Assembly (NCBI GenBank): GCA_963697775.1
Contig: CAVOPH010000003.1
Span: 151,844-215,843 of the forward strand
Reading direction: 5' to 3'
DNA length: 64,000 bases
Source: an uncultured Acidobacteriota bacterium
Lineage (GTDB): Bacteria > Acidobacteriota > Vicinamibacteria > Vicinamibacterales > 2-12-FULL-66-21
Made by a program: the position numbers and the translations under genes. How positions within the stretch are numbered: the stretch's first letter is position 1; each line of letters begins with the position of its first letter. This document shows positions 8,540-58,822 of the stretch, one piece after another. The notes beneath the pieces are model-generated. The model saw only the letters and a program-made list of their open reading frames with translations. It was not told the DNA's origin and did not search any database.

Positions 8540-8540
8540 C

Positions 8541-8589: not shown

Positions 8590-8611
8590 GCCCGCCTTCG
8601 GCTAGGCCGGC

Positions 8612-9791: not shown

Positions 9792-9816
9792 GCGCTCATG
9801 CTACTGCACTGCCTGT

Positions 9817-11570: not shown

Positions 11571-11660
11571 TCCCCCATTGTATGTCCATGGAAACGCGAT
11601 CGGGGAATGGGGGCAGCAGGCGACAGCCGAACCCGCGCTCAGGGCCTCGGGCCGCGGAGA

Positions 11661-11876: not shown

Positions 11877-11992
11877 GCGAGGATTGTATCGTGTTGCGGT
11901 GCGCTCGTGGCGTCAGCTGGGAGCCGTCGAGCTTTGTGCTAGAATTTCATGTTCGCGCGTGCCGTTCGCACACGACGATCACACGCCTTCGA

Positions 11993-12068
11993 GCCGGCGT
12001 AGCTCAGTTGGTAGAGCAGCTGATTCGTAATCAGCAGGTCCTCGGTTCAAGTCCGAGCGCCGGCTCCA
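11993..12068 (+). tRNA. tRNA-Thr (anticodon CGT)
   Basis: The cloverleaf can be read directly: acceptor GCCGGCG/CGCCGGC, D arm GCTCAGTTGGTAGAGC, anticodon stem-loop GCTGA-TTCGTAA-TCAGC, T arm CTCGG-TTCAAGT-CCGAG, and an encoded CCA. Confidence 0.93.
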
Positions 12069-12337
12069 TAATCTTCAGCAAAAACCCTCGCTACAACCCC
12101 TGCGTCCCCCGGTCTCCGACCGCTGGGCAACCTATGGGTAACATGCACGTTGAGACGAACCGTCTCGATCATCGGGCGATGCGGTCACGTCGTTCTGCGC
12201 TGTCCCTGGTTTGTACCGCGTTCACATTTTTCCCCTCGGGTGGCAGCCTCACGAACGCGGTCTAAGAACCCTGTCGGTGATCGTGGGAATGCCGAACGGA
12301 GTTCGCGCATTCGCGTGGGTGAAAGGCGGTGGTCCGT

Positions 12338-14533: not shown

Positions 14534-14609
14534 CGGGCAACGTTTCTGCTCGCCACGTCAGAAGGGGCACAGATTCCCGCGCAGGTGTCAGCGTCCGCCA
14601 TATGTGCCG

Positions 14610-42461: not shown

Positions 42462-44426
42462 CTACGGGCGTCCCGCGGCGAGCGCCCATGTCGGAAAGTA
42501 GGCGTGATAGAGCCGGTAGTCGAGCATGGCCGTCCCGAAGAACACGCCGTTGACGGCTCCAGCCGGCCAGGATCCATCAGGGGCCTGGAGGGATTCGAGA
42601 AGAATTCGGCCGCGGCGCATAGCGTCGCAGTCAGGGTCCCCGTACGCGAGCGCCAGGACGGCCCAGCTGGTCATCACGGGCTGTGGCTGCGTGTGCGGAA
42701 CATACCTGCCGGTGAGACAGCTGGAGTAATGCTCACCCCACCCACCGTCCTCTCGTTGCAGCGCCTTGAGCCAATTCAGCGCTCGACGAATCGCCGGATC
42801 CTGACGATCGACGCCGGCAGCACGCAGTGCCTTGACGACGTGAAAGAGGCTGTAGGTGAAACAGACACCCCACGCCGCAGGAAAACGTCCGTCTGGCAGT
42901 TGACTGCGCCGAAGGAAGGCGACCGCGGAGTTCAGAGCCGCGGCGACGCGCTGATCTCGCACGTCCGGATGCGTCCGGCGCACGGTGGCAAGGGCTTCGA
43001 TCGCTGACGCCGTGCACTCGACGTACGAATGCTCCGTCATGCAGTCGCGAAACATTTCGGACGGGTTCAGGCGATCGAGCCAGGCAGGACCGCGGCTCCG
43101 TTCGTAGGTGCTGAAGCCACCGTCGTCATTCTGTCGGGCAAGCAGAAACTCGATCGCCTGGGTCACGCGCTCGACACTCAAGTGGTCGGTATCCGGGATG
43201 AGCCCCGGTACGCGTTGCATGTCGAGGATGGCCGTCAACGCTTCGGCAGTGCAGTCGCTGACCGGCCATTGATGACGACCGTCCGAGAAGCACCACCCGC
43301 CCAGAATGGGCTCGCGGTCGTGCGCCACCTCCGCCGGCAACTCGTCACGCATCTGAGCACCTGCCAGATACGAGTGCGCGCGGCGGAGACTCGCGCACGC
43401 TGCATTCAGCGTCGGCGTCGATGTGGCGTCGGCGGGCGCAACGGTCACATCTTCGAGCAAGGCGCGCGCGGCGAACGCCGTATCCCACACCTGTGACCGC
43501 GCGCCGGCGTACCGAACACCGGCTGCGGCGTCACGCCATTGCCAGTTTTCGATTCCCTCGAGGCTGGGACCGAGATCCCGGTGCGATCGATCGCGGGACA
43601 GAATGGCCAGGCAGTTCAACAAGGCATTGACCGGCGAGAGACCTTGATATCGCGACGCATGCTGTTCGTGCAGAACTTGCTCGAAGCAAGCAGCGAGCGC
43701 CCGCTGACGCAGCCTCCGCGGCATCCACGTCAACACGACGGTCAGCGCACCGCGGAAGATCGGGAGGAGAGGAGACGGCCGGGCGTATAAATCGACGTCC
43801 GACACCTCGTCGCGATGGGCGGCAAAATCGATGCGGTCGAATTGCTCCTCGTACAACTCCGTGCGAAGCGCATCCCGCAGCGCGCCGAGGTCGGCGGTGA
43901 ATTGGCAACCATACAGATATGCCATTCCCAGATAGATGTAGCGCGTGTGGCAGTACCAGTGCCTGGGGTGAAACGGCAGCCACCGCGGCAGAAGAAACAA
44001 CTCCGGCGGCACACTTCCAACACCCTTGAAGTCATACAAGCCGACGAGTGCGAGCCAGAACTTGCCCCATGTCGGAATCGCGAGGACGCCGCCGGGCTGA
44101 CGACGGAGCCACTGCCGCGCGGGCGCGGCCAACTGATCCTCCGGCGCCACACCGAGGAGCCGCAGTGCGACGTATGCCAGCGTCGTCGTGAAGATCTGTG
44201 GCGGTCCTTCGGGATGAAGTCCCCACCCACCCTCAGCGGTCTGCGTCACCGTATAGTGCTGGCGGATCTGCGCGCGATCTCTTTCATCCAGCTCTCGTCC
44301 GGTTGCATGCCGAACGATGACGTACTGCGAGAGGATCATCGTGCACCACACGACTTCTCCTTCCCACGAGCCGTCCTCGCGCTGCAGCGAACGAAGATGC
44401 TCAATCGCGAGCTCGCCCGGATTCAA
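42462..44426 (-). CDS. oxidosqualene cyclase (lanosterol/cycloartenol synthase-type triterpene cyclase)
   Basis: Multiple QW repeats: QREDGSWEG, AEGGWGL, QNDDGGFS, QLPDGRFP, QREDGGWGE, QAPDGSWP. The catalytic motif HQWPVSDCTAEAL (Asp codon 43254-43256) is the OSC type, not the SHC DxDD type. SQVWDTAF is present. The start is uncertain: the TTG at 44426 overlaps the upstream stop codon, and the ORF is open to 44654. Confidence 0.85.
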   Translation of the reverse strand: MNPGELAIEHLRSLQREDGSWEGEVVWCTMILSQYVIVRHATGRELDERDRAQIRQHYTVTQTAEGGWGLHPEGPPQIFTTTLAYVALRLLGVAPEDQLAAPARQWLRRQPGGVLAIPTWGKFWLALVGLYDFKGVGSVPPELFLLPRWLPFHPRHWYCHTRYIYLGMAYLYGCQFTADLGALRDALRTELYEEQFDRIDFAAHRDEVSDVDLYARPSPLLPIFRGALTVVLTWMPRRLRQRALAACFEQVLHEQHASRYQGLSPVNALLNCLAILSRDRSHRDLGPSLEGIENWQWRDAAAGVRYAGARSQVWDTAFAARALLEDVTVAPADATSTPTLNAACASLRRAHSYLAGAQMRDELPAEVAHDREPILGGWCFSDGRHQWPVSDCTAEALTAILDMQRVPGLIPDTDHLSVERVTQAIEFLLARQNDDGGFSTYERSRGPAWLDRLNPSEMFRDCMTEHSYVECTASAIEALATVRRTHPDVRDQRVAAALNSAVAFLRRSQLPDGRFPAAWGVCFTYSLFHVVKALRAAGVDRQDPAIRRALNWLKALQREDGGWGEHYSSCLTGRYVPHTQPQPVMTSWAVLALAYGDPDCDAMRRGRILLESLQAPDGSWPAGAVNGVFFGTAMLDYRLYHAYFPTWALAAGRP

Positions 44427-45655
44427 TAGAGTCCCGGCACGATGCGCCAGCGGACCTTCTGGCAATACGCCTCCCAATCCTGACCGTACTTGTCCAGGCA
44501 CATCCGATGGTCGCGACGTTCGCGATGGAGCAGCAGGATCAGGAAGTAGACGATATAGAAATAGGTCAACGGATGTGAGAACCCGGTCGGCAGGCACCAC
44601 GCCAGGCCCATCAGCAGGTCGCCGAAGTAGTTCAAGTGCCTCGAGACGCCCCACCAGCCCGACGTCAGCAGGAGCGCGCCGCTTCCCGTGCGAATGTAAA
44701 CCGGCGGCCGGCCCCAGACCGGACGCGTCGGGTCGCGCCGGAACCGGTGCTTCTGAATGTTCGCGCCGCGAAAGATCAGGTACCCGGCCATGTTCAAGAG
44801 GACGATTCCAGTTGTCGCGATGAAGGACAGTTCATGCGGGTGGGTCACGAGATAGTAGGCCTGCACGGTATACATGAACGGAACCCACACCAGATCGCCC
44901 CAGCACAACATCCATCCAAACCGCTCGTGCTTGATGTCCCAGGCGGTGACGATGGCTTCCTCGTGAAAGAAGTAATCAGCGACGTACAGAAACTGAAAGG
45001 CATTCACGAGAATCATCGGCGTCGTGACGAAGCCTTGGAGCTCATACTGCTTCGCCGCACAGGAAGCATCGAGAAGCACCCAGAGCATCAGGCCGGGGCG
45101 CGCCTCACAGAAGAATTTCAGATCGAGGTGTCCAATCCGCGGGTTGAGCGACACCCCAAACACATAGCCGACGATTCCACCTTTCGCCCGCGCGGCAGTC
45201 GATCGCTCCCTCTGTGACCAGAAAACGGCCGCCGCGATCGCGAATGCGGCAATGTTTGCGGTGACCAGGAGCGGACCGAATTCGTCGTATGCGATCGAGC
45301 CGCGCACCCTGCCAGACCACACGGCCACCAGCACGATCCCGATCGTGCAGACGAACGACAGCAGCCCATTCATTCGATACTCGAGCCGCGATCCGTCGGA
45401 TAGGGGCATCCCGGTCGCGGATCGGCCGGGGACGACGAAATAGAGCGCGACCTGCAGGATCAGCCACGACACGTAAAGAAGAGTCGCCGCGACGGTGGGC
45501 CGCGGCAGGTACTGATGGAGGCCGTCGCGGATCTGCGGCGCAAGCGGAGAAACCAGCGCTCCATCGAAAAACGTCAGACACAGCCAGGAGTACCAGGCAA
45601 AGACGGGAAGACCAATCAGCATCGCCGCAGCGGACAGGCGACGATCTGCAGTCAT
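44423..45655 (-). CDS. ERG4/ERG24-family sterol reductase (C-14 / C-7 / C-24(28) type; specificity not assignable)
   Basis: About 9 TM helices. The C-terminal signature LNYFGDLLMGLAWCL...LLLHRERRDHRMCLDKYGQDWEAYC matches the sterol reductase family signature (LLHRxxRDxxxCxxKYG). ATG at 45655 (MTADRRLSAAAMLIGLPVF). Confidence 0.85.
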   Translation of the reverse strand: MTADRRLSAAAMLIGLPVFAWYSWLCLTFFDGALVSPLAPQIRDGLHQYLPRPTVAATLLYVSWLILQVALYFVVPGRSATGMPLSDGSRLEYRMNGLLSFVCTIGIVLVAVWSGRVRGSIAYDEFGPLLVTANIAAFAIAAAVFWSQRERSTAARAKGGIVGYVFGVSLNPRIGHLDLKFFCEARPGLMLWVLLDASCAAKQYELQGFVTTPMILVNAFQFLYVADYFFHEEAIVTAWDIKHERFGWMLCWGDLVWVPFMYTVQAYYLVTHPHELSFIATTGIVLLNMAGYLIFRGANIQKHRFRRDPTRPVWGRPPVYIRTGSGALLLTSGWWGVSRHLNYFGDLLMGLAWCLPTGFSHPLTYFYIVYFLILLLHRERRDHRMCLDKYGQDWEAYCQKVRWRIVPGLY

Positions 45656-45713
45656 CGGCGTCGAGATTAGCGAAGTCGTGTTTCGGTGTAAACTGCGGGC
45701 TCTCCGAGGCCCG

Positions 45714-46754
45714 ATGGCTCCCTCCGCTACCCTCGTTACCGGCGCGACCGGACACCTGGGCGCAAACCTCGTCCGGCGGCTACTGCACGAAGGCGTACGC
45801 GTCCGGGTCCTGCTGCGGCCGACGCACGACCCGCGCGCGGTTGAGGGACTCGATGTCGAGCGCGCGCCTGGCGACATCTGCGACCGCGCCTCGATCGAAG
45901 CGGCGATGGAGGGCTGCGCACGGGTTTTTCACTGCGCCGCGAAGATCTCAATCACCGCCGGCGGTGAGCGCGAGATCTACGACACTAATGTGCTCGGCAC
46001 GCGCAACGTCCTCGCGGCGGCGGCACGCGCCGGCGTCGTGCGCACGGTGGTCACCGGATCGTTCAGCGCGGTGGGCCATCATCCCGATCGCCCGAGCGAC
46101 GAGCGGGATCCGTTCAACCCGTTCGCGAAAGCACTGCCGTACGAGCGGTCCAAGGCCGCCGTTGAACACGAGTGCCTGAAGGCGGCGGTGGAAGGACAGG
46201 ATGTCGTGATCGCGATCTCGTGTGCGATCGTCGGCCCTCACGACTTCAAGCCATCGCGGATGGGCCGGGTCGTGTGCGACTTCGCGAACGCCCGAATGCC
46301 CGCGTACATTCCTGGAGGGTTCGAGTTCGTTGCCGCCCGCGACATCGTGACCGGCCATCTGCTGGCGATGGAGCGTGGACGTTCGGGTCAGCGCTACATC
46401 TTCAGCACCGAATTCGTCACCGTCGATACCTTGATGCAGTGGCTGGAAGAGATCACCGGCCAACCGCGGCCGCGGCTGCGCCTGCCGCCTGCCGTGATGG
46501 CCGCGATCGCTGAAGTGGCGAGTCCGCTGCTCACGATCCTTGCGCCACATCGTCCGCAGCGCCTGACACCTGCCGCCGTTCACCTGCTCCGAATGGGCCG
46601 GCGCGCGGACTGCTCGAAGGCGAAACAGGAACTTGGCTATCAGCCCACGTCGGTCAAGGATGCCGTGCGCGACGCGTATGAATGGTTCGTCGCCAACGGA
46701 GACATCCGAAAGGTGGCGAATCCAGCGTCAGTCACCGAGACACGGAGAGTCTGA
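45714..46754 (+). CDS. extended-SDR NAD(P)-dependent 3-beta-hydroxysteroid dehydrogenase/reductase-like enzyme (SdmB/ERG26-type candidate)
   Basis: Rossmann motif VTGATGHLGANLVRRLL. Catalytic YxxxK in PYERSKAAVE. It is the first gene of the operon that includes CYP51 and the Rieske oxygenase. Confidence 0.7.
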   Translation: MAPSATLVTGATGHLGANLVRRLLHEGVRVRVLLRPTHDPRAVEGLDVERAPGDICDRASIEAAMEGCARVFHCAAKISITAGGEREIYDTNVLGTRNVLAAAARAGVVRTVVTGSFSAVGHHPDRPSDERDPFNPFAKALPYERSKAAVEHECLKAAVEGQDVVIAISCAIVGPHDFKPSRMGRVVCDFANARMPAYIPGGFEFVAARDIVTGHLLAMERGRSGQRYIFSTEFVTVDTLMQWLEEITGQPRPRLRLPPAVMAAIAEVASPLLTILAPHRPQRLTPAAVHLLRMGRRADCSKAKQELGYQPTSVKDAVRDAYEWFVANGDIRKVANPASVTETRRV

Positions 46755-48106
46755 TGACCGATTCCCCGTCGGCGACGCTGCCTCCTCTCTTGCCCGGCGG
46801 CCTTCCCTACCTTGGACACGCGTTCGAGTTCTGGAGCCGGCCAGTCGATCTGCTTCAGGCAGGTCAACGCAGGTTCGGCAGCGTCTGGAGCTTCGTGCTG
46901 GCAGGCCAGCGTGCCACCGTGCTGACAGGGCCGGAAGGGAACGAGGCCTTTTTCCGCGCGCCGGACGATGTACTCAGCGCGCGCGACTGCTACAAGTTCA
47001 CCATTCCCGTGTTCGGACCGGGTGTGGCGTACGACGTGCCGCCCGCGGAGATGGATCGCCAGCTCGCGTTCGTCCACCCGGCGCTCAGCGACAAGCGGCT
47101 GCGCAAGTACGTCGAGGTGATGGTCGAGGAGGCTGAACAATATCTGACCACCTGGGGCGACGCCGGCGAGCGGGATCTGTTCTCGACGACGCAGGACATC
47201 ACGCTCTTCATTGCCACTCGCTGCCTCCTCGGCGACGAGGTCCGCCGCCATTGCAGCACGCGGTTCGCTCAGCTCTACCACGATCTCGACGGCGGAATGT
47301 CGATCCTCGCCTACTTCTTTCCGCATGCGCCGCTGCCAGCGTTCCGGCGCCGCGATCGCGCGCGTGATGCGGTCTATGCGCTGCTGTCGGACATCATGGC
47401 GCAGAGACGACGGAATGGAGCCGCGGCGCACGAGGATTTCCTCAGCACGCTGATGGCGTTTCGCGACGAGCATGGTGCACCCCTGTCCGACAACGTCGTT
47501 GTCGGTCTGTTGCTGACGCTCATCTTTGCCGGGCAGCATACGAGCGCGGTGCTGGCGGCGTGGACCGGCATCCTGCTGCATCAGCATCCGCACTATCTGC
47601 CGCCGATTCTGGAAGAGCAGGTTCGTGAGCTTGCCGGCAACGATCTCACCACCGAGTCGCTGAAACGGCTGGTCGTGCTCGAGCGCGCGATCAAGGAAGC
47701 CGAACGGTTACGGCCGCCGCTGGTCATGCTGATGCGATCGGTTCAGCAGCCGCTTCGCGTCAACGGCTACGAGCTGCCGGTCGGTTCGCTCGCGCTTGCC
47801 TCGCCGGCGGTCTCTCACCGCCTGCCGGCGATCTACACCGAACCCGATCGTTTCGATCCCGAGCGATTCGGCCCGGGCCGGGAGGAGGATCGCCGAGCCT
47901 CGTACTCGCTGATAGGCTTCGGCGGCGGCAAGCATCGCTGTATCGGAATGGTGTTCGCCTACCAGCAGATCAAGATCATCTGGACCAGCATCCTGCGACG
48001 ATATGACATCGAGCTCGTCGAGCGCGAGTATCGGCCCGACTACCGTACGCTCGTGGTCGGCCCCTGCCAGCCGTGCCGCATCAGATACAGAAGGAGAGCT
48101 GCGTGA
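46754..48106 (+). CDS. cyp51: sterol 14-alpha-demethylase, cytochrome P450 family 51
   Basis: CYP51 signatures: YKFTIPVFGPGVAYD (B' helix and B-C loop), LTLIFAGQHTSAV (helix I) and the haem loop FGGGKHRCIGMVFAYQQIKIIW. The overall order resembles mycobacterial CYP51. The ATG overlaps the upstream TGA (TGATG). Confidence 0.9.
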   Translation: MTDSPSATLPPLLPGGLPYLGHAFEFWSRPVDLLQAGQRRFGSVWSFVLAGQRATVLTGPEGNEAFFRAPDDVLSARDCYKFTIPVFGPGVAYDVPPAEMDRQLAFVHPALSDKRLRKYVEVMVEEAEQYLTTWGDAGERDLFSTTQDITLFIATRCLLGDEVRRHCSTRFAQLYHDLDGGMSILAYFFPHAPLPAFRRRDRARDAVYALLSDIMAQRRRNGAAAHEDFLSTLMAFRDEHGAPLSDNVVVGLLLTLIFAGQHTSAVLAAWTGILLHQHPHYLPPILEEQVRELAGNDLTTESLKRLVVLERAIKEAERLRPPLVMLMRSVQQPLRVNGYELPVGSLALASPAVSHRLPAIYTEPDRFDPERFGPGREEDRRASYSLIGFGGGKHRCIGMVFAYQQIKIIWTSILRRYDIELVEREYRPDYRTLVVGPCQPCRIRYRRRAA

Positions 48107-49209
48107 CGCCCCCGACGTTCGAACAGGCACACAATCATCGCCAGCGAGTACGCGCCGCCGGCCTCAGCCCGGACCACTGGTACCCGGTCGAATGGGAGCG
48201 GAACGTCAAGCCCGGGCAGGTCATCGACACGACGTTCTGGAACCAATCAATCGCGGTCTTCCGCGGAAAGAATGGATCGCTCTATGCGGTTGAAAACCGC
48301 TGCGCGCATCGCCAGCTGAAACTCTCGCTGGGTGAGGTCGGCGACTGCACGATCACGTGCGGATACCACGGGTGGATGTACGACGGCGAGGGGCGATGCA
48401 CGCAGATGTTCCACGATCTCTTCGGTCACACGTTTCCGCGGCTGAAGATCGCGTCGTTTCCGGTCCAGGCGCGGCACGGGCTCGTCTGGATCTTTCCCGG
48501 GAACCCGGCGCTGAAAGACGAGCGGCGTATCCCGGACATTCCTGAACTGGAACAGGCTCGACCGTGGGGATCCATCGCGATCGATTTCACGTGGCGCGCG
48601 CACCACTCGATGATCATCGACAACGTCAGCGACTTCACCCACGCCTACCTGCATCGCAAGAGCAAGCCGTTCACCGATGCGAAGCTCACGATGATGGAGC
48701 CGCAGGCCGACCGCGTGCTGCTCGCGTACGACACGAAAGTCGGCCAGGGACGAATCTCAGGATTGTTCGTCGATCGAAAGCGGACGAACACGAATGCGAT
48801 GACGCTCGCCTACGAGTATCCGTATCAGTGGTCCAACACCGACGACAAGATCAAGCACTGGTGCTTCGTGCTGCCGATCGACGGCGAGACCACGCGGGTG
48901 TTCTTCATCTTCTATTTCAGCCATGAAATGCTGAAGGTGCCGCTGATTCCGCTGCGAATGCCGCGGCCGCTCATCCGCGCAATCATGGCCGCGTCAAAAC
49001 GGCTGCTGGTCAAACCGCTGCTCGAAGAGGACGGCGTCGCGGTCGAAGCCGAACAGGAAGCGTGGCGAAAGCATTACGAACAGCCGATCGCAGAACTGAA
49101 CCCTGCAGTCCATCAATTTCAGCAGCTGACCATCCGCAAGTGGGAGGAGCACCTGGCGCGATCGGTGAAGCCGAGGGCCGCTACTTCCGCTCCAGCTCTC
49201 TCCGGCTGA
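48103..49209 (+). CDS. Rieske non-haem iron oxygenase, SdmA-like (candidate sterol C-4 methyl oxidase)
   Basis: GTG start overlaps the CYP51 stop codon (GTGA), 6 nt after AAGGAGAG. Rieske motif CAHRQLKLSLGEVGDCTITCGYHGW. Mononuclear iron motif DNVSDFTHAYLH. Confidence 0.75.
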   Translation: MTPPTFEQAHNHRQRVRAAGLSPDHWYPVEWERNVKPGQVIDTTFWNQSIAVFRGKNGSLYAVENRCAHRQLKLSLGEVGDCTITCGYHGWMYDGEGRCTQMFHDLFGHTFPRLKIASFPVQARHGLVWIFPGNPALKDERRIPDIPELEQARPWGSIAIDFTWRAHHSMIIDNVSDFTHAYLHRKSKPFTDAKLTMMEPQADRVLLAYDTKVGQGRISGLFVDRKRTNTNAMTLAYEYPYQWSNTDDKIKHWCFVLPIDGETTRVFFIFYFSHEMLKVPLIPLRMPRPLIRAIMAASKRLLVKPLLEEDGVAVEAEQEAWRKHYEQPIAELNPAVHQFQQLTIRKWEEHLARSVKPRAATSAPALSG

Positions 49210-50018
49210 AGTCCTCCTCCTTCAAGCCAATGTTGTAGTGGACGTTGGTCATCGACAGCTCGGTGTGCGTCCGGGCACTCACGTCGGTCATGACGATCTC
49301 TGACAGCGTCCAGATCGATTGCACCAGATCCAGCCGCTTCACCTCGTAGACCTTTTCCTTCTCGTTGCGCCGATTGTAGATGTCCGCGTGCACGACGACG
49401 AAAGTGTCCTTCCGCACCGTCGAGACGACGCGTGGAAATCGCGCCTGCACATTTTTTGCGCGGGATTCGATTCGGTACACCGGTACCGTCTTGCCGTCAG
49501 GCCCGGCCCACGTGCCGTTCGGTTCAACCATGGTGTAGGTGTAGTCGTCGAGTTCGCGACCGCTGATGTCTTCGTAGGTAAAGTCGCTGCCGACGAAATT
49601 ATCCTGAGCTTCCGCGCCGGTAATCCTCCGCACCCGTCCCAGCGCCGGGCAGATAGAGGAACCGCTCGTCCTCCGAATCGGGGTGCTCCCACACCAGGAA
49701 CGCGGTGCCCTTGATGTCGTTCGGGTAGGTGAAACGAATCAGGATTCGATCGCCGGCATCGGTACCTTTGGCGGCTCCTCTGGCCTGCGGTCTCATCGTC
49801 TGAATCGACAATTCTCGTTCGCGGACCCGCTGCTGCCGATCGAACAGTCGCATCTTCAACTCGAAGCGGCCGTCTTTCCCGATGTCGCGATTGTCGGCCT
49901 GCCGGGCCACCCATTCCGCCGTTTCCGGTTGTGGCACCCTGGACACGGCATCTACGTAATACAACGGCAGCAGGCATGGAATCATCGCCAGGGCGAAACG
50001 TGCGCGGCACGTGACCAT
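49181..50018 (-). CDS. LolA-like outer-membrane lipoprotein-sorting family protein; frame interrupted near 49640-49650
   Basis: ILIRFTYPNDIKGTAFLVWEHPDSEDERFLYLP is followed in the adjacent frame by LGRVRRITGAEAQDNFVGSDFTYEDI...VKRLDLVQSIWTLSEIVMTD. This is the family's YLPalkrvrRI core. N-terminal signal MVTCRARFALAMIPCLLPL. Confidence 0.75.
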
Positions 50019-50094
50019 GGCCGGCGATCTTCGCCTCCCGCAAGGGAAAAGGCAAAGGGCAAAATTAAAAATCAGGCCGAAGGATATTGGCGTT

Positions 50095-51462
50095 ATGCTC
50101 AAAGCCAGTCCCGCCGTGGATGTCGAGTACGACATCGCAATCGTCGGTGCCGGCTTTACCGGCGCATTTGCCGCCGCCGCGCTTGCCGACGGCTATCGCC
50201 GCATCCTCGTACTGGACGCGCATCCCGAAGGCCGACCGCAGTTCGGCGGTGAACTGATCCACGCCGCCGGCGTGGACATCCTGATCAACCTCAAACTCTG
50301 GCCGATTCTTCAGCACGCGTCCGGCGAGCGCATTGACGGGTTCCACGTCAGCTCCGACGCCGGCGACCCGCCGGTCAGGCTTCCCTACCGCGACGTGCCG
50401 GCGCTGCGTCCCGGCGGCCTCGCGATCGAGCACCGTCAGATCGTCTCACGCGCTCGCGAGCATCTCGGGAGCCGACCGGGCGTGGACGTTCGCACGGGGC
50501 AGCGAGTCATCGACGTCATCTGGCGTAACGGTCGCGTCGCCGGCATAAAGACGGCGTCCGGCGAGCAGATCGGCGCCACGTTGACGCTGATCGCGGACGG
50601 AAGACACTCTCGCACGAGACGGGCGATCGGGATTCGGGCCCGGAAGCGCACCGTGTCGCTGAGCGCGATCATCACTGCCGAACACCAGTCCCTGCCGGAA
50701 CCGCGCTACGCCTGTATCTGTCTGGGCGCACCCGGCCCCAGCCTGGCCTACGGACTGCGCAATCGGGATGTCCGGTTCTGCATCGACGTGCCGATCACCG
50801 ACAATGTCACACGCGAGCACGTCGCCTCGCGACTTCGCAAGGAATATGCACCGCGACTCCCCAATCCGCTCCGGGCGCAGCTGCTGAGCGCGCTCGATGC
50901 GGGGCCGGTGGAGCTCTGCGGCAACGACATCGTCCAGACAGATCGGTGTACCGTCCCCGGCGCAGCCCTCATCGGCGACTCCGCCGGCTGTTCCCATCCG
51001 CTGACGGCGAGCGGGATGACCAACAGCCTCAATGACATTCGCATTCTGTCCGACGAGTTGCGCGCCGGTTCCACGCTCGATGAAGCGCTGGCCCGATACG
51101 AGGTGCGACGCTATCGATTCGTTCGGATCCGCGAGATTCTTGCGGAGGAGCTGTACCAAGCGTTCAGGGCAGAAGGCGCCGGCGAGCGCGCAATCCGCAC
51201 GGGGATCTTCCGCTACTGGCGCACGAGCGCGCATGGCCGCGCGGCGACCGTCGCGCTGCTCTCGGGCGACGATGCGCGTCTCAGTACCTTCGTCGGCGAG
51301 TACCTGCGCGTGATGCGCGAGTCGATCCACGGTACAGTGCTGCGTCCGAAGAGCGATTCGTCCCTGCGTGGTCGCGCACACTCGCTGGCAGGGCTGCTCA
51401 AGGAGTCGCTGGATCTGCTGAATCGCGTCAGCGCCGGCGTCTACACCGGCACCGTGAGATAA
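50095..51462 (+). CDS. squalene monooxygenase (squalene epoxidase)
   Basis: FAD fingerprint DIAIVGAGFTGAFAA. Motifs FGGELIHAAG and LIGDSAGCSHPLTASGMTNSLNDI, the latter corresponding to the epoxidase motif hPLTGGGMTV. Confidence 0.8.
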   Translation: MLKASPAVDVEYDIAIVGAGFTGAFAAAALADGYRRILVLDAHPEGRPQFGGELIHAAGVDILINLKLWPILQHASGERIDGFHVSSDAGDPPVRLPYRDVPALRPGGLAIEHRQIVSRAREHLGSRPGVDVRTGQRVIDVIWRNGRVAGIKTASGEQIGATLTLIADGRHSRTRRAIGIRARKRTVSLSAIITAEHQSLPEPRYACICLGAPGPSLAYGLRNRDVRFCIDVPITDNVTREHVASRLRKEYAPRLPNPLRAQLLSALDAGPVELCGNDIVQTDRCTVPGAALIGDSAGCSHPLTASGMTNSLNDIRILSDELRAGSTLDEALARYEVRRYRFVRIREILAEELYQAFRAEGAGERAIRTGIFRYWRTSAHGRAATVALLSGDDARLSTFVGEYLRVMRESIHGTVLRPKSDSSLRGRAHSLAGLLKESLDLLNRVSAGVYTGTVR

Positions 51463-51497
51463 ACAAAAGTTAAAAGTTAAAAGTTAGAAGTTAAAAG
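51463..51497 (+). repeat. heptamer tandem repeat (AAAGTTA)n immediately after a stop codon
   Basis: aaacaAAAGTTAAAAGTTAAAAGTTAGAAGTTAAAAGACC begins directly after the squalene epoxidase TAA (51460-51462). The unit is the same as in the 9817-9865 array read on its gene's sense strand. Confidence 0.9.
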
Positions 51498-51517
51498 ACC
51501 TGCGGGGTCTTCACCTA

Positions 51518-52672
51518 TCACTTCCCCCGGGCCCTACCTTCTCCCGATACAGACGACGTGGTCAGCGCCGACCCTATTGCCCAGGTTGCAATGCGGCGAA
51601 GGCGCGGGCGCTCGTAGATGCGACCGATCGCGTCGAGCACCCCGACTCTCACGGCACCGCGAAACGCATGTCCCATCAGGAACCCCGGGACAAATGCGCC
51701 CCGGCAGCGCTTGGAATACCCCTGCCATGCGTTCGACTCATCCACTCCGCCCTGAACGACTTGCGCGAGCGTCTCGGCGGCGAGCACTCCGCAGCGCATC
51801 GCCTGATAAATCCCTTCACCCGTCGCGGCGTTGGTGAGCCGCGCGGATTCGCCGACATACAGAATCCCCGGAGCCGCCACCGCCTGTGGCCAAACCGAGT
51901 GCGCAATCGGGTGTCCGGACCATCGGCCAATCGTTCGCGCCGGCCGGAGGCGATCACTGTAGTGGCGCTGAAGAAACGATTCGAAGACGGGACGCAGGCT
52001 TCCCAAATCACCGCCGCTTCCTGCGCGCCTCCCGTCCACGACGATGCCGATGTTGACGCGTGACGGAGTCTCGGGAAACATCCAGCCGTACAGCGGGCAC
52101 AGCGCTCGATCGAAGATCATCTCGAGCGTGCCTGGCTCGAATTCGAACCCCTCCCACCAGCCCATGATCGTGGCCAGCGCCTGTTTCGGCCGCGAGTCTT
52201 GCGAAAATCGCGAATGGGCGCCGTCTGCGCAGATGACGTAGTCGGCCGCGATGACTTCATCGCCGGCGCGTACGCCCGCAACCCGGCCGCGGTCATGAAC
52301 CAGCGCGGTGACCTGTACGCCATCACGAAACTGGACACCGAGCGTCCGCGCGCGATCGACGAGAAGTTGATCGAAGTCTCTGCGCAGCAGCACAACCGCC
52401 GCCTCGCCGCCAGAGAGACGCAACGTGCGCCCGCCTGGAGTCGTCAGGAGCAACGAGTGGATGGTGTAGGCCCGTGCCCGGATCGCGTCCTCGACAGCCA
52501 GGTCGGCGAGGACCCGCAATCCGAGCGGGGAGATCGCCGAGCCGCAGGTTTTCTCTCTCGGGAAACGCGCGCGATCAAGAAGGATGACGTGCTGAAACCC
52601 GCGTCGGGCAAGCGCGATTGCGGCGGCACACCCGCCAGGTCCGGCGCCGACGATGACAATCCGGTCAGCCAC
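51518..52672 (-). CDS. geranylgeranyl-reductase-family FAD-dependent oxidoreductase
   Basis: GTG start. Dinucleotide fold IVIVGAGPGGCAAAIALARRG...LLDRARFPREKTCGSAISP. The ~380 aa length is typical of the family. Confidence 0.75.
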   Translation of the reverse strand: MADRIVIVGAGPGGCAAAIALARRGFQHVILLDRARFPREKTCGSAISPLGLRVLADLAVEDAIRARAYTIHSLLLTTPGGRTLRLSGGEAAVVLLRRDFDQLLVDRARTLGVQFRDGVQVTALVHDRGRVAGVRAGDEVIAADYVICADGAHSRFSQDSRPKQALATIMGWWEGFEFEPGTLEMIFDRALCPLYGWMFPETPSRVNIGIVVDGRRAGSGGDLGSLRPVFESFLQRHYSDRLRPARTIGRWSGHPIAHSVWPQAVAAPGILYVGESARLTNAATGEGIYQAMRCGVLAAETLAQVVQGGVDESNAWQGYSKRCRGAFVPGFLMGHAFRGAVRVGVLDAIGRIYERPRLRRIATWAIGSALTTSSVSGEGRARGK

Positions 52673-52733
52673 GATGTTGGCGCTCGCGAGTCCGCGGTCT
52701 CCAGGATCCAGAGCGGAGCGCTATAGTATCGCC

Positions 52734-55517
52734 GTGCAGGGCCTCGTCCAACGACTTCTCCTCTGGAGCGTCAGGCGTCCAGCCGCCGGGGCGCTGCTCT
52801 ACATCGCCCTGACCGTGGGGTTGACGTCAGCGATCCCGCGACTCCAGATCGACGCCTCCAACGAAGGCTTCATGCTCGAGCGCGACCCTGCCCGTCAGTA
52901 CTACGAGCAGGTCAAGGGTACGTTCGGCAGCGACGAGCTCACGGTCGTCATGATCACGGCAGGCGATGTCTTTACGCCTGCGGCGCTGAAGACGATCGAG
53001 CGGCTATCCGACGCATTGCAGCGTGTCGAAGGGGTCGCTCGCGTAGACAGTCTCGCCACCGTGGACAACATCGGCGCCACCGACGAAGGAGTTGAAATCG
53101 CGCCGCTGCTCCGCGGCGGCATCCCGGAGGATCCGGCCGGACTGGCGGTGCTCAAGCGGAAAGCGCTCGCCAATGACATCTTCACGGGCAATCTCGTCTC
53201 GCCGGATGCCCGCGCGGCAGGCATCTTCGTCTACACCCAGGCGAGCGACGGCGACAAGACATTCAACGCGAGATTCTCGTCGCGGGTCGAAGATCTCATC
53301 CGCGAGAACCAATCCGCCGGTGTCGTGGTCGAGCAGATTGGCGGGCCGCTCATCAAGGCGACGGTGGCGGACTTCGTCCGCCGCGATCAGCTCACGTTGA
53401 TCCCGTTCTCGGTGGCCACGCTGTTCGTCGTGCTCATGCTCGGGTTCCGGACGCCGCAGGGCGTGATCGCGCCGCTCTTCACCGGGTTGTCGAGCGCGCT
53501 CTGGGGCGTGGGCCTGATGGCGCTTTTCCACATTCCCTTGAATGTGGTCACCGTGGCGGTTCCCTCGCTGGTGCTCGTGGTCGGATTCGCCGAAGCGGTG
53601 CACATCATCTCGGCGTATCACGCGTGCCTGCGCGCCGGCCGCGACAAGATACACGCGCTGACCGAAGCGGTTGAAGAGGCCGCGCTGCCGGTGCTCGTCA
53701 CCACGGCCACGACGATTCTTGGATTCGCGACGCTGATCTTTTCCGACATCACGATCCTCATCCAGTTCGGGTACGCCGCAACGCTGGCGTTGACGGCGAA
53801 TTTCATCGCCACGCTGCTCGGGATCCCGTTGCTGCTGCGGCTGTGGCCGCAGCCGAAGAGATTTGCGGCCACCGTGCTGGCAGAGTCGACGCCGGGTAAC
53901 GCCGTCGATCGGCGAATCGCCTCGGGCTGCGCGTTCGTGCTCCGGTATCGTGTGCCGATCGCGGCGCTCTTCATCGTGCTGGCGATTGCCTCCCTGTGGG
54001 GCTGGTACACGCTCAAGGTGGACACCGATTTCGTCAGCTACTTTCCGCGGAATTCGCCCGTCCGTCAGCGCATGCACGACGTCGATCAGGCCCTGAACGG
54101 CGCCTCGGCCTTCTTCGTCGTCGTCGAAACCGGCCGCGAGAACGGCGCCACCGATCCCGGCGTCCTGAGACAGGTGGCGGAGCTGCAGACGTTTCTGGAA
54201 GGCGTCCCCGGCATCGGGAAGACGGTGTCGATCGTGGACTACATCTCGCAGCTGAATACGACGCTCAGCGGAGTTCGCGTCGGCGCCCGCGCGGTGCCCG
54301 ACTCTTCGGAGCTGATTGCGCAGGATCTGCTGCTGATGGATCGCACGCAGATCGCACGGTTCATCGATCTGCCCGCGACCTCAGCGAACATTCTCGTCCG
54401 TCACAGCCTGACCGGTTCGTGGGAGCTGTCACAGGCGCTCCGTCAACTCGATGCCTACGTGGCGGGGCACGTTCGCGGCGTCGCGGTGCAGGCGTCGGGG
54501 CAGTCGGTGCTGACCAACCGCGCCGCCGACTACATGGCCGTCAACGAGGTCACGAGCTTCGTCTACACGCTGGCGATCATCGGGCTGATTCACTCGGCGC
54601 TGTTCCTGTCGGTGAAAGCCGGACTGCTGTCGCTCGTGCCGAACGTCATTCCCGTGATCTACAGCTTCGGCCTCATGGGGCTGCTCGACATTCCGCTGAG
54701 CACGGGCACGGCCATGGTGGCGACGATTGCGATAGGCATCGCGGTGGATGACACGGTCCACAACATGGTGACCTACAGCCGTCAGCTGAACCAACACGCT
54801 GACGAGCGGACCGCGGTGGTCCGGACCATGGCGATTCAGTTCAGGCCGATCGTGTTCGTTTCGATGGCATTGGCGAGCGGCTTTGCCGTGCTTGCATTCT
54901 CCCGTTTTGTCCCAACCGTCCATCTCGGCCTGCTGTCCGCTTTCGTGATGGTCGCGGCGATGATCTCGGAGCTCGTGCTGTCGCCGATCCTGATGGCATC
55001 GACGCGGCTGGTGACGGTCTGGGACATGCTGCTCGTGCGCATGAATCCAGACCTCGTGCGCCGGGCGCCGCTCTTCGAAGGCCTGTCGCGCTGGGAAGCG
55101 CGAAAGGTTGTCCTCACAGGAATGCTCCAATCGCTGGCGGCTGGACAGTACGCGATTCAGCGCGGCGACCAGGGACGGCATCTCTACATGGTCGTCGCCG
55201 GCCGTCTGATCGTGGTCGATTCGGATCTCGACGGCCGCGAACGCACGTTGTCTGTCGTCGGCCCAGGCGGCGTGTTCGGTGAAACGGGATTGTTGACCGA
55301 TGGCTATCGAATGTTTTCGGCCCGGGCCGAGACGGCAGCGGAGGTCCTGCGGATGGATTTCGACACACTCGATCGGTTGCGACGCCGGTTCCCCTTCACC
55401 GCGGCCAAAGTCTTCAGGAACCTCGCGCGCATCCTCGGCGAGCGGCTTCAGGACACCACGTCAGCGATGCTGTATCTCACGAGCGACACCGCACCGCGCG
55501 TCGAGCAGCAAAAGTAA
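52734..55517 (+). CDS. COG1033/MMPL (HpnN-like) RND-superfamily exporter fused to a C-terminal cyclic-nucleotide-binding domain
   Basis: There are two 6-TM bundles with periplasmic loops (IDASNEGFML...DSLATVDNI; second half VDTDFVSYFP...). The C-terminal ~125 aa (about 55060-55450) carry FEGLS...LYMVVAGRLIVV...GPGGVFGETGLL...ARAETAAEVL. The start is uncertain: GTG at 52734 or ATG at 52674. Confidence 0.8.
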   Translation: MQGLVQRLLLWSVRRPAAGALLYIALTVGLTSAIPRLQIDASNEGFMLERDPARQYYEQVKGTFGSDELTVVMITAGDVFTPAALKTIERLSDALQRVEGVARVDSLATVDNIGATDEGVEIAPLLRGGIPEDPAGLAVLKRKALANDIFTGNLVSPDARAAGIFVYTQASDGDKTFNARFSSRVEDLIRENQSAGVVVEQIGGPLIKATVADFVRRDQLTLIPFSVATLFVVLMLGFRTPQGVIAPLFTGLSSALWGVGLMALFHIPLNVVTVAVPSLVLVVGFAEAVHIISAYHACLRAGRDKIHALTEAVEEAALPVLVTTATTILGFATLIFSDITILIQFGYAATLALTANFIATLLGIPLLLRLWPQPKRFAATVLAESTPGNAVDRRIASGCAFVLRYRVPIAALFIVLAIASLWGWYTLKVDTDFVSYFPRNSPVRQRMHDVDQALNGASAFFVVVETGRENGATDPGVLRQVAELQTFLEGVPGIGKTVSIVDYISQLNTTLSGVRVGARAVPDSSELIAQDLLLMDRTQIARFIDLPATSANILVRHSLTGSWELSQALRQLDAYVAGHVRGVAVQASGQSVLTNRAADYMAVNEVTSFVYTLAIIGLIHSALFLSVKAGLLSLVPNVIPVIYSFGLMGLLDIPLSTGTAMVATIAIGIAVDDTVHNMVTYSRQLNQHADERTAVVRTMAIQFRPIVFVSMALASGFAVLAFSRFVPTVHLGLLSAFVMVAAMISELVLSPILMASTRLVTVWDMLLVRMNPDLVRRAPLFEGLSRWEARKVVLTGMLQSLAAGQYAIQRGDQGRHLYMVVAGRLIVVDSDLDGRERTLSVVGPGGVFGETGLLTDGYRMFSARAETAAEVLRMDFDTLDRLRRRFPFTAAKVFRNLARILGERLQDTTSAMLYLTSDTAPRVEQQK

Positions 55518-55518
55518 G

Positions 55519-55540
55519 AAGTTCAAAGTTCAAAGATTCA
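55519..55540 (+). repeat. short heptamer repeat AAGTTCA AAGTTCA AAGATTCA after a stop codon
   Basis: It starts 2 nt after the exporter TAA (55515-55517) and overlaps the convergent stop codon at 55538. Confidence 0.7.
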
Positions 55541-55924
55541 TCGAGTCCCTTTATCGTTCGCGCGAATGGCGTAACGGATGCCCTCGATGAGCGCATCGGG
55601 ACTCGCGCGCATGTCGCCGTTCATTTCGACCACCGGCACGTGCTCGGGTGCCTCGAGCCGAATCCGGGAGGCGGCTTCGGGCTCGGCGACGACGACATCC
55701 GGACGAAGGCCGGACATCACGCGCAGCGCTTCGTCTACCGTCGCGCTCGTCGTCACGGCAAACTTCAGACGCGCCAGCACGGCCTCGGACTGCGCCATCG
55801 CCGTTTCGCCGTGTCCCACCACCAGCACGAGCGGGGCAAAACCCGGCACATCGCCAGCACGACGGCCGCCGCGCGGCAACCTTCTCCGATCTGGTCCCTG
55901 TCGATTCTCGGACGCGTCCGTCAT
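55538..55924 (-). CDS. receiver-like (pseudo-receiver) domain protein
   Basis: REC-like layout with a degenerate acidic pocket. Beta-1 is LVLVVGHGE instead of DD. Beta-3 is PDVVVAE, so Glu sits at the phospho-acceptor position. An Arg-rich N-terminal tail is present. Confidence 0.5.
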   Translation of the reverse strand: MTDASENRQGPDRRRLPRGGRRAGDVPGFAPLVLVVGHGETAMAQSEAVLARLKFAVTTSATVDEALRVMSGLRPDVVVAEPEAASRIRLEAPEHVPVVEMNGDMRASPDALIEGIRYAIRANDKGTR

Positions 55925-56260: not shown

Positions 56261-57865
56261 TTACTTCCGCGCCGGCTGCCCGTTCATCACGAACGCCCAC
56301 AACGTATCTCCCGCGCCGACGATCACGTACTGATTCCCATCGAGCTCGTACGTGATCGGCCCGTTGCTGACTGAGGCGTTGAGTCCCGCGTGCCACAGCG
56401 CTTCGCCGGTCGCCGCATTCAGGGCGACGAGATCGCCCGAGGCGCCGCCGCTGAAGAGCAGATTGCCGGCGGTGCTGAGCAGACCGGCGCGCGTCCCCCA
56501 CCTTCCCACGGGTGGCTCCATTTCACCTTGCCGGTCTTGTAGTCGATCGCCTGAAGCATCGATTCACCCCAGCCGCCGCGATCGGTGCCGCCCCAGCCCT
56601 GCGGATTGTCTCCGGGGTCGTAGATGTAATACACGCTGAACGCGCGCGTGGCGTTGACGTAGAAGAGACCAGTCTGCGGACTGAACGTCGGCGGCGGCCA
56701 GTTGGCGGCGCCTCCCTGGTTCGGGGTCACGAGCGCGCCGTCGATCTGCGGATGCTTCTTCGGATCGGGCACCGGCTGACCCTTTTCGTCGTAGCCCGAC
56801 GCCCAGTTCGTCTTCACGTATTCCGACGAGATGATCGCGGTACCGTTGGTGCGATCGAGCACGAAGAAGTGGCCGTTGCGCGCCGCCTGTGCGACGAGCT
56901 TGCGCGTCTGACCGTTGACCTGACCGTCGAACAGGACCGCCGTCTGCGTGGAATCCCAGTCGTGCGTGTCGTGCGGCGATGACTGGAAATACCAGTTCAT
57001 CTTGCCGGTGTCCGGATTGAGCGAGACGATTGACGCCGTGAACAGATTTGCGCCGGTACGATTGACGTGTGCGATCACCGGCTGCGGATTGCCGGTGGTG
57101 ACATACATCTGATTCAGCTCGGGATCGTAAGTGAACGGCTGCCAGGTCATGCCGCCACCGTGCTTCATCGCGTCTTCGTTCGGCCACGTGTCGGACCCGG
57201 GCTCTCCCTTTTTTTGCGGTACCACATACCACCGCCAGATCATTTCGCCGGTCTCCAGGTTGTGCGCCTGGGCGTACCCGGGAACGTCCAGGTCGTCACC
57301 GCTCACGCCGACCATGACTTTGTCCTTCACGATAATCGGCGCGACCGAACCGTAGTAGAACTGGTCGAGATCGCAGATCTGTTTGTGCCAGCGTTCGCGT
57401 TCCGTCCTTGATGTTCAGCGAGACGAGATTGCAGTCCGGGGTTTCGAAATACAGCCAGTCGCGATAGATTGCCGGGCCGCGATTGCCGATGTGAATCCCG
57501 CCTTTCGACTGCCAGATGTGGTGCCAGATCTCGCGCCCGGTCCGCGCGTCGAGCGCCCACACGTGATCCGGTGCGGTGAGATAGATCACGCCGTTGACCT
57601 GGAGCGGCGTCCCCTTGATCGCGCCAGGATTGCCGCCCCCGCCAGGATTCATTCGGTAGACCCAGCCGAGGCTCAGCGCGCCGATGTTGCCGTCGTTGAT
57701 CTTCGTCAGCGTGCTGAACCGGCGGCCGGTGTAGTCGCCGTTGTAGCTCGGCCACGAGTCCGTGCCGGGATTGAGAAGCTTCGCGGGATCGAGGCCCGTC
57801 TGCGCCGTCGTCAACATGACCGCGGCACAGACAAAACTGGACGCAGCGAATATGGCGCGTTTCAT
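56261..57865 (-). CDS. PQQ-dependent (quinoprotein) dehydrogenase; two frame interruptions (56495-56499 and about 57398-57408)
   Basis: Signal peptide MKRAIFAASSFVCAAVMLTTAQ. Beta-propeller repeats: LSLGWVYRM, PLQVNGVIYLTAPDHVWALDARTGREIW, VSLNPDTGKMNWYFQ, LQAIDYKTGKVKW, LVALNAATGEALW. Three ORFs (57296.., 56419..57330, 56261..56521) join colinearly. One junction lies in a C5/G5 homopolymer. Confidence 0.85.
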
Positions 57866-58783
57866 TTCAGCGTCTCCAGATAGGCAACCACGTCGTGAAT
57901 GTTCTTGTCGGTGATCGTTTCGAGCAACGCGTGATGGGCAGCAAGCGGATCGTCCTTGACGACCTTGACGCCGGGCCCGCGCTTGAACGTCCGGTAGACG
58001 CCGGAGCTGTCGCGCAGCGACACGTTGAAATCGTCCATCTGCAGCAGGACGCCGGTGACCGCCTCTCCATTCGACGGGGTCACGGTGACTTTCACTGAGC
58101 TCGTCGGCGGAGGACCGCCTCGACCGCGACCGCCGCGCGCCGCCTCCGGGAAAGAGAAAGCGCTGCTGCAAATCAATCGGCTCATACCGGCCGCCAATCC
58201 CCGCGAGGTTCAGGGTGGTCGCCGTATGACACGTCGCGCACTTCCCGGCCCCGTTGAAATACTCGGTTCCGGCCTTCGCGTCCCCGGTCAGCACGTTCTG
58301 CGGCTGGAAGAGCGGCGAGCCGCGGAACGAGTCATTGACGCGCTGCCGCAGAAAGTGGGCAAGGTTGACGATCTGATCGTCGGTCAGCGTCGATGCCGAC
58401 CCGCCGCTCTGCATCTTGTGTCCGCGCTTCAGAAAGGGCCCGAGCTCGTTGCCATATCGATCGCGCAGGACGACGAGCGAGCGCGTCAGGTTCGGTCCAT
58501 TGTCGGTGCCGCGCGCCTGGGTGCCGTGACAATTGATGCACTCGGCCGCCCACACGGTGCGTCCCCGGTCCGCCAGCGCGGCTTCGACAAACGGCGCATC
58601 CGCCGGCCCCGCGCCCATGACGCCGCCGCGGGCACGTCCGCCTCCCGCCGGGGGCGGCGTCTGCTGGCCGCCGCGTCCTCCGGCCGGAGGCTGCGGCGCC
58701 TGAGCGCTGATGATGGTCACCGTTGCCGACAAGCCGAACACGGCCATTCCAATCCAGACTCGAGAAGTACAGGCGCTGCGCAT
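57862..58783 (-). CDS. dihaem c-type cytochrome (partner of the PQQ dehydrogenase); frame interrupted about 58105-58150
   Basis: Haem motifs CINCH and CATCH. The C-terminal domain continues in ORF 57862..58197 (VKVTVTPSNGEAVTGVLLQMDDFNVSL...VAYLETLK). Its stop codon overlaps the dehydrogenase ATG (ATGA). Confidence 0.8.
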
Positions 58784-58822
58784 GGGTATCGTCTCCGGTC
58801 GCGCCATCATACCTTCAATAAA

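Follow-up and report, generated by a model that had tools for sequence, protein, structure and literature searches.

The closest described relatives of the protein considered here are pumps of the MMPL/HAE3 branch of the RND superfamily. The protein, RND-CNB, is encoded in a 64,000-nucleotide stretch of DNA from an uncultured Acidobacteriota bacterium (the window) and joins an RND core to a C-terminal cyclic-nucleotide-binding (CNB) domain. HpnN of Rhodopseudomonas and Burkholderia (structures 5khn and 6wu0) shares with its RND part the MMPL/HAE3 branch, 12 transmembrane (TM) helices, and two periplasmic domains, and its cargo, hopanoid, is a polycyclic triterpenoid like the sterol cargo proposed here; however, HpnN carries no CNB domain, a LolA-like partner has not been reported for it, and the window context is one of sterol genes, not hpn genes. 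BstA, of the BstABC system of Methylococcus capsulatus, is an inner-membrane RND/MMPL protein that is encoded with sterol genes and has a proposed role in sterol movement toward the outer membrane (PMC10942540). It likewise lacks a CNB domain, and its partners are a PhnD-like periplasmic binding protein (BstB) and a TPR protein (BstC), whereas the candidate partner in the window is LolA-like. AmeABCD of Castellaniella defragrans, the only characterized HAE3 system with such partners, combines the HAE3-type AmeD with a LolA-superfamily DUF1329 protein and a DUF1302 outer-membrane protein in monoterpene efflux (PMC6394551). The AmeABCD part list recurs with a CNB-bearing member in one of the loci described below (L086), but AmeD is 787 amino acids long, has no CNB domain, and has a monoterpene cargo, and the window cluster showed neither a DUF1302 gene nor an AmeC-like one. 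MmpL3, MmpL4, MmpL5, NPC1, NPC1L1, and Patched use cation gradients to move lipids or sterols, and none has a CNB domain; the RND-CNB core matches MmpL4/5, NPC1L1, NPC1, and PTCH1 structurally at an identity of only 12-16%, and the TM10 segment GIGVEFTVH of Patched aligns with GIAVDDTVH of the window protein.

On the sensor side, the CNB domains of Thermus CAP, GlxR, MtbCRP, SthK, and MloK1 share with that of RND-CNB a common fold (root-mean-square deviation, rmsd, 1.4-2 Å), a G-E...R cassette, and a long C-helix. SthK and MloK1, in which the domain follows the last TM helix of the channel and gates it, are the closest functional analogy, but the output of the window protein is an RND pump rather than a DNA-binding domain or an ion pore, its linker of ~20 residues carries a motif of its own, and its cassette reads R-M-F where the others read R-[ST/A]-A. 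Fusions of CNBD, CBS, and UspA domains, CNBD-MFS proteins among them, resemble RND-CNB in placing a cytoplasmic sensor on a transporter in a "plug-and-play" manner (PMC10710835). The same 2023 review of transporter regulation lists only small proteins, AcrZ and WatS1, as modulators of RND pumps, and mentions CNBD fusions solely for MFS transporters (PMC10710835). No description of an RND/MMPL pump with a CNB domain was found in the open-access papers and bioRxiv preprints searched, and public databases annotate members of the family only as "MMPL family transporter." An earlier note on this DNA, made from the sequence before any search, had held that direct cyclic-nucleotide gating of a lipid exporter would be a new regulatory arrangement; this holds insofar as the fusion was found undescribed in the literature searched, but the fusion itself is old, widespread, already sequenced, and not peculiar to this genome. 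What is undescribed in RND-CNB is the way an HAE3-type pump and a CNB sensor are combined and the context in which they occur; it does not amount to a new category. For the traffic of sterols and other polycyclic lipids to the outer membrane of bacteria one system is known, BstABC in Methylococcus, and the only post-translational regulators known for RND pumps are small accessory proteins. If a pump carries its own cyclic-nucleotide sensor, signaling would be tied directly to envelope lipid composition, and bacterial cAMP/cGMP signaling would gain a new class of output, in a family that is large and spans many phyla.

Domain structure, intactness, and spread of the fusion

The RND-CNB gene lies within an open reading frame (ORF; 52653..55517, plus strand) that runs without a stop and whose longest form, from ATG 52653, encodes 954 amino acids. 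Translation likely starts at GTG 52734 (Table 1), because homologs of 921-935 amino acids align over 99-100% of the resulting 927-residue product and because the divergent FAD gene starts at 52672; alignment of the homologs from that codon favors the start given in the earlier note over ATG 52653 and over ATG 52674, the public call (947 amino acids). The public record that begins at ATG 52674 (P0121) is identical to the window translation over 947 amino acids. Residues and motifs are named below by the 927-residue product, and Pfam match positions refer to the 954-residue ORF. Pfam searches confirmed the MMPL/RND exporter with a C-terminal CNB domain that the earlier note had read from the translation: MMPL matched residues 85-397 (E 6e-22; 78.4 bits against a cut-off of 20.5), sterol-sensing domain (SSD) and Patched profiles matched residues 265-388, over TM2-6, and cNMP_binding (PF00027) matched residues 826-911 (E 6e-18; 65 bits against a cut-off of 27.5). 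Scans of the surroundings of the gene for promoter and terminator consensus sequences gave no match.

An AlphaFold2 (AF2) monomer model built on 51 family sequences (predicted local distance difference test, pLDDT, 83.5; predicted template-modeling score, pTM, 0.75) gave the core 12 predicted TM helices and two predicted periplasmic domains (residues ~32-203 and ~426-589). The nearest Foldseek matches of the core were MmpL4/5 (TM-score 0.75-0.80), followed by HpnN (0.64) and then NPC1L1, NPC1, and Patched, whereas a sequence search of solved structures matched the core only to HpnN (E 1e-4) and Patched; profile score, predicted topology, and structural matches together place the protein in MMPL/RND. 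Across the 51 family members, the TM4 motif has an invariant G284, with E287 and H290 conserved to at least 90%, while in the TM10 motif V671, D672, and H676 are invariant and D673 and T674 are at least 90% conserved. Conserved charged residues in both TM4 and TM10, the mark of RND proton pumps, are thus present, and by analogy with such pumps the two motifs are consistent with a working proton relay. The best NCBIfam match was HAE3 (TIGR00921), below its cut-off (175.2 bits against 351.9); HAE3 is the nearest family, and the window protein is probably a divergent sister or sub-branch of it. Orthology to HpnN or BstA was rejected on scores far under the curated cut-offs: the two HpnN models (TIGR03480, NF052374) gave 85 bits against 751.85 in one case and 19.6 against 1100 in the other, and the BstA model NF045600 gave 32 bits against 1400. 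The earlier description of the exporter as HpnN-like is therefore kept at the level of the RND superfamily and branch, but not in the sense of an HpnN equivalog.

The CNB domain occupies 55065-55484, close to the 55060-55450 estimated beforehand. In sequence searches of solved structures it matched, among others, PKA-R, Thermus CRP, and the SthK CNBD (E 1e-12 to 3e-16). A separate AF2 model of the domain with its linker (176 amino acids; pLDDT 90.5) was matched best by Thermus thermophilus CAP (4ev0; 34% identity, rmsd 1.4 Å over 135 columns), next by cAMP-bound GlxR and MtbCRP, and also by Xanthomonas Clp (3iwz) and trypanosome PKA-R (6h4g); the SthK channel CNBD superposes as well. The domain thus belongs to PF00027 by both profile score and beta-roll fold, and the possibility, raised in the earlier note, that the C-terminal region would fail to score as a CNB fold did not materialize. 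Between TM12 and the CNB domain, over a spacing of ~20 residues, the linker carries the motif RLVTxWD, which is conserved in CNB-bearing members (V760 0.90, T761 0.97, and W763 0.97 in 31 of them, down to 27% identity) and absent from CNB-less relatives; this is the pattern that a coupling element would be expected to show. Identity to the window protein is 82% in the CNB domain against 72% in the core for the ortholog on contig L001, 59% against 48% for the member in L004, and 40% against 27% for the Solimonas member. By these comparisons the CNB domain is conserved at least as well as the pump core.

MMPL and cNMP_binding occur together in one chain in ~60 database proteins, whose identity ranges from 97% to 28%. 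Loci were gathered by a scan of one genome per species and by contig look-ups; the taxonomic counts are lower bounds, and the absence of the window clade from the matches listed by the scan carries no weight. In 42 of the 85 loci fetched, from many phyla, the RND core is directly continued by a CNB domain. Hosts of the fusion include Methylomirabilota/Rokubacteria, Nitrospira, Planctomycetia, Omnitrophota, Acidobacteriota, and several Desulfobacterota and Thermodesulfobacteriota, as well as Elusimicrobia, Limisphaerales, Myxococcota, and Gammaproteobacteria, the isolate Solimonas sp. SE-A11 among them. The linker and CNB segment was additionally searched against 1.84 billion cluster representatives (clusters at 50% identity), and the best 150 of these included at least 53 full-length RND+CNB proteins and at least 35 RND-containing fragments. 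In favor of an assembly or frameshift artifact that joined two genes, the window does hold frame-broken genes (the LolA-like gene and a pyrroloquinoline quinone (PQQ) dehydrogenase/cytochrome c region); however, the RND-CNB frame is continuous, the domain boundary falls 20 residues past TM12 with a conserved linker, and the same architecture is found in independent assemblies from many phyla, including that of an isolate. On the strength of the homologs, the 42 loci, and the identical public protein, an artifact was rejected, and its probability is regarded as negligible; nor did the hidden frameshift that the earlier note had allowed for come to light, the fusion being kept in the ~60 homologs.

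In a neighbor-joining tree of the RND cores, computed without support values, all CNB-bearing proteins form one clade, inside which a group of CNB-less proteins (42-49% identity to the window protein) is nested. The nested position of this group suggests a single old acquisition of the CNB domain followed by losses. Four distant RND relatives of the same branch (P0072, P0075, P0076, and P0079; ~25% identity, ~1545 amino acids) end in GAF and histidine-kinase ATPase domains in place of the CNB domain, and their RND module may serve as a lipid sensor that feeds the kinase.

The LolA-like partner and the sterol cluster

The RND-CNB gene closes a near-complete sterol biosynthesis cluster (Table 1). 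The same genes in the same order, ending in RND-CNB, were found on three independent contigs (orthologs P0009, P0017, and P0020; 68-74% identity), the conserved cluster being carried by soil metagenome contigs L001, L084, and L085. In three metagenome-assembled genomes (MAGs) of Methylomirabilota/Rokubacteria (L005-L007), with RND-CNB proteins at ~50% identity, a LolA-like/RND-CNB pair adjoins squalene epoxidase and cyclase genes in a rearranged order. The sterol context is thus kept in the window and in six further loci of two clades. Sterol genes in Rokubacteria were reported earlier without mention of the transporter (PMC7306690). The LolA-like gene of the window was recovered by tblastn in two frames with 74-75% identity to its ortholog on L001, and its orthologs are intact on L001, L084, and L085. 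At the sensitivity of tblastn, a LolA-like gene immediately precedes RND-CNB in the same orientation in 23 of the 42 fusion loci and lies anywhere in the locus in 27, and by this gene neighborhood a LolA-like protein is the usual partner of the RND-CNB family. A DUF1302 partner was found by tblastn in only one of the loci, that of the distant member in L086, where DUF1302, LolA-like, and RND-CNB genes occur together.

The link between RND-CNB and sterols rests on this gene context. It is better supported than the earlier note had argued, but not through the SSD match, which was dismissed as a sign of sterol specificity: Solimonas and other members outside sterol loci match the SSD more strongly than the window protein does. 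It is accordingly worth weighing whether the pump is a general exporter of hydrophobic compounds or other lipids, of the AmeD/HAE3 kind, that happens to stand beside sterol genes and does not carry sterol. About 35 of the 42 fusion loci lack sterol genes within 10 kb, the sole characterized system with an HAE3 pump and a LolA-like protein exports monoterpenes, the SSD matches are generic, and the BstA and HpnN models failed. Against this, the LolA-like gene is embedded in the sterol cluster, between the Rieske and squalene epoxidase genes; the pump gene is the final gene of the cluster at four loci in the window clade, the window counted; the association recurs in Methylomirabilota at ~50% identity with another gene order; and paralogous CNB-less copies in Rokubacteria (L008 and L011) have no sterol neighbors. 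A cargo other than sterol is therefore considered rather unlikely for the window protein, although a minority case that deserves to be kept in view. Sterol is a lineage-specific cargo at most, because most fusion loci have no sterol neighbors. The LolA-like/RND pair in the sterol clusters of Acidobacteriota-like and Methylomirabilota lineages from soil provides concrete candidate transport genes.

Several further features of these clusters were observed. The cluster on L085 additionally has an ERG2-like gene. The FAD GGR-like gene is divergently or tandemly paired with RND-CNB in the window, L001, and L085, and is a candidate for an uncharacterized step of sterol or isoprenoid reduction. On L001, a 913-residue Ser/Thr kinase with Tricorn-like beta-propellers (5995-8736, minus strand) lies between the squalene epoxidase and FAD-reductase genes.

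Predicted cyclic-nucleotide control of the pump

The phosphate-binding cassette of the family is almost uniformly canonical (G-E-[MIV]-[AG]-L...R-[ST]-A-x-V), and cAMP or cGMP is most probably the family ligand. Set against the consensus of cyclic-nucleotide binders, G-E-x-[AG]-L...R-[STA]-A, the window cassette keeps G849, E850, and R859 and deviates at M860, in the Ser/Thr/Ala position, and at F861, in place of the usual Ala. The GE pair, the conserved Arg, and the RM reading were all correctly described in the earlier note, which missed the Phe that replaces the normally invariant Ala after R[ST]. Within the window clade (at least 67% identity) the cassette reads GET-G...DGYR[T/A/M][F/S/I/C]SARA, so that RM is one state of a variable position; column frequencies show G849, E850, and R859 fixed in this clade and invariant or nearly so family-wide. 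The cassettes of PKA and Epac read R-A-A and those of CAP, HCN, PKG, and MloK1 read R-[ST]-A; the Ser/Thr is thus dispensable, since PKA and Epac bind cAMP with R-A-A. No characterized cyclic-nucleotide binder is known to lack the Ala after R[STA], and its loss is a more unusual change than a Met at the Ser/Thr position. Because of this atypical cassette, the ligand is less certain for the window clade than for the rest of the family, and its affinity or specificity may have shifted with the change from R-[ST]-A to R-M-F.

Two other accounts of the CNB domain in the window clade follow from these changes. It could be a ligand-independent relic that retains its fold and its contacts with the pump and has lost cyclic-nucleotide sensing, serving as a CRP-like dimerization module or as an autoinhibitory one. 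In proteins that otherwise share 67-97% identity, the [ST] position varies between T/A/M and the Ala position between F/S/I/C, as if constraint had been relaxed precisely where the ligand is contacted; no nucleotide cyclase was detected among the window ORFs tested; and a structural role would suit both the long C-helix and the closest fold matches, which are dimeric CRP proteins. However, the three ligand-contacting residues G849, E850, and R859 are invariant in the clade, the whole domain is better conserved than the transporter core (82% against 72% in L001), and the R-A-A cassettes of PKA and Epac indicate that loss of the Ser/Thr alone is not disabling. Loss of sensing is on balance unlikely. 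Alternatively, the domain might bind another small molecule, for example a nucleoside, a different nucleotide, or an intermediate of the pathway, and place the pump under metabolite control. CRP/FNR-type CNB folds are known to take ligands other than cyclic mononucleotides; among the folds matched here, Xanthomonas Clp responds to c-di-GMP and the trypanosome PKA-R is cAMP-independent, with cassette changes at the Arg and Ala positions that switch the ligand, and a pocket with a bulky Phe in place of the Ala would have a different shape. Yet the Arg that clamps the phosphate and the Gly-Glu that contacts the ribose are still present, and the remainder of the family is canonical and sometimes linked to a cyclase, so that a different class of ligand appears quite improbable.

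Nucleotide cyclase genes accompany the pair in some fusion loci. In Solimonas sp. SE-A11 (L044), the LolA-like and RND-CNB genes are directly preceded, on their own strand, by the gene for a 1080-residue protein that combines a class III cyclase domain (PF00211, E 4e-26) with AAA_16, and the same arrangement occurs in three more Nevskiales genomes (L034, L038, and L043), with cyclases 46-95% identical to that of Solimonas. In an Elusimicrobia MAG (L022, 5245-14973), two cyclase genes flank the LolA-like/RND-CNB pair, and in the sterol-linked locus of a Rokubacteria MAG a weak cyclase match lies 7 kb away. Among CNB-less loci, a cyclase was found in 1 of 43. This linkage, in three lineages against one, is suggestive and no proof. 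The Solimonas genes form an operon-like row on one strand (5806-12715), in which the class III cyclase at 5806-9048, with AAA_16 and TPR, is followed by the LolA-like gene and by RND-CNB at 10001-12715, and the two L022 cyclases have unusual sensor modules (RyR and TPR-S with the cyclase domain in one, FHA with the cyclase domain in the other). Since Solimonas sp. SE-A11 is cultured and has the upstream cyclase, the idea of cyclic-nucleotide control is testable without cultivating the organism of the window.

RND-CNB is an MMPL/HAE3-branch transporter of the inner membrane whose short, conserved linker joins the last TM helix to a cytoplasmic CRP-type CNB domain. In the mechanism we propose, the pump would draw a hydrophobic lipid from the inner membrane at the expense of the proton gradient, in this case a sterol made by the neighboring enzymes, and pass it through the periplasmic domains to the LolA-like carrier and from there to the outer membrane. 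Ligand binding would shift the B and C helices of the CNB domain together with the RLVTxWD linker, and movement of the linker would reach TM12 and the adjacent TM10 relay and so switch or tune the TM10-12 proton-relay cycle, in a coupling modeled on the CNB gating of the SthK and MloK1 channels; the long CRP-like C-helix may pair two protomers. A proton-driven exporter of lipid, here sterol, with the LolA-like carrier as acceptor and allosteric control by cyclic nucleotide strikes us as evenly poised between right and wrong. Several observations weigh against it. The linker has a pLDDT of only 61-75 in the monomer AF2 model, and the coupling path is conjecture; the LolA-like gene of the window is frame-broken by a 1-nt indel near 49640-49650; the scarcity of sterol neighbors across the fusion loci and the generic nature of the SSD match in this RND branch, both set out above, count against a sterol cargo; the derived cassette may mean that the window clade binds weakly or binds something else; no nucleotide cyclase was found in the window among the ORFs tested, nor by tblastn or hidden Markov model searches; and most fusion loci have no cyclase within 10 kb. 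The wider claim, that RND-CNB proteins represent the first case of direct gating by a second messenger (cAMP/cGMP) in the RND superfamily, exporting lipids or sterols via a LolA-like carrier along a sterol route separate from BstABC, is put forward tentatively, as a possibility that we would not yet favor. If true, cyclic nucleotides would acutely control the lipid or sterol content of the outer membrane in Acidobacteriota-like and Methylomirabilota lineages, and a second bacterial route of sterol trafficking, evolutionarily separate from BstABC, would exist.

Features and other genes of the window

The features of the RND-CNB gene and of the sterol cluster are collected in Table 1.

Table 1. 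Positions in the window of the RND-CNB gene, its parts, and the genes of the adjoining sterol cluster.
Feature	Position	Strand	Basis or remark
RND-CNB gene	52734..55517	+	927 amino acids from GTG 52734
RND core, residues 1-756	52734..55001	+	AF2 secondary structure, Foldseek
TM4 motif GFAEAVH, residues 284-290	53583..53603	+	putative proton-relay acidic residue
TM10 motif GIAVDDTVH, residues 668-676	54735..54761	+	putative proton-relay pair D672/D673
Juxtamembrane linker past TM12, TRLVTVWDMLLVRMNPDLVRR	55002..55064	+	carries RLVTxWD motif
CNB domain, residues 778-917	55065..55484	+	8-stranded beta-roll and long C-helix
Phosphate-binding cassette GETGLLTDGYRMFSARA	55278..55328	+	alignments to 4ev0, PKA-R, and SthK; family comparison
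Sterol biosynthesis cluster	42462..52672	both	Pfam
Oxidosqualene/squalene cyclase (squalene-hopene/oxidosqualene family)	42462-44654	-	Pfam
ERG4/ERG24 reductase	44423-45877	-	Pfam
3beta-HSD/epimerase-type dehydrogenase	45678-46754	+	Pfam
P450	46682-48106	+	Pfam
Rieske/VanA_C oxygenase	48073-49209	+	Pfam
LolA-like carrier gene (PF17131 TP_0789-like / DUF1329)	49184..50018	-	tblastn; Pfam fragment match
Squalene epoxidase	50095-51462	+	Pfam
FAD GGR-like oxidoreductase	51518-52672	-	Pfam

The frame break in the LolA-like gene could be a sequencing error or mark a very recent pseudogene. A second broken region lies at 56261-58810 (minus strand), where a PQQ-dependent dehydrogenase gene and the preceding cytochrome c gene appear to be split into at least 3-4 frames (ORF pieces 57296-58810, 57862-58197, 56419-57330, and 56261-56521); taken together, the breaks in the two regions suggest indel errors in the assembly. 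A tblastn search of the window with the PQQ dehydrogenase of L002 gave no match. Directly downstream of RND-CNB, a 128-residue ORF without a Pfam match (55538-55924, minus strand) resembles, by eye, a receiver domain without the acidic pocket and without the phospho-acceptor Asp; it is not kept beside the orthologs, where a PfkB kinase gene stands instead. Elsewhere, Ser/Thr kinases, an ADOP-like MacB/FtsX permease, and DUF1080 proteins encoded in the window agree tentatively with an origin in Acidobacteriota, as does an MreB search, which gave one named relative (Vicinamibacterales, 80% identity). Two of the Ser/Thr kinases are large (5062-8688 and 12341-14557).

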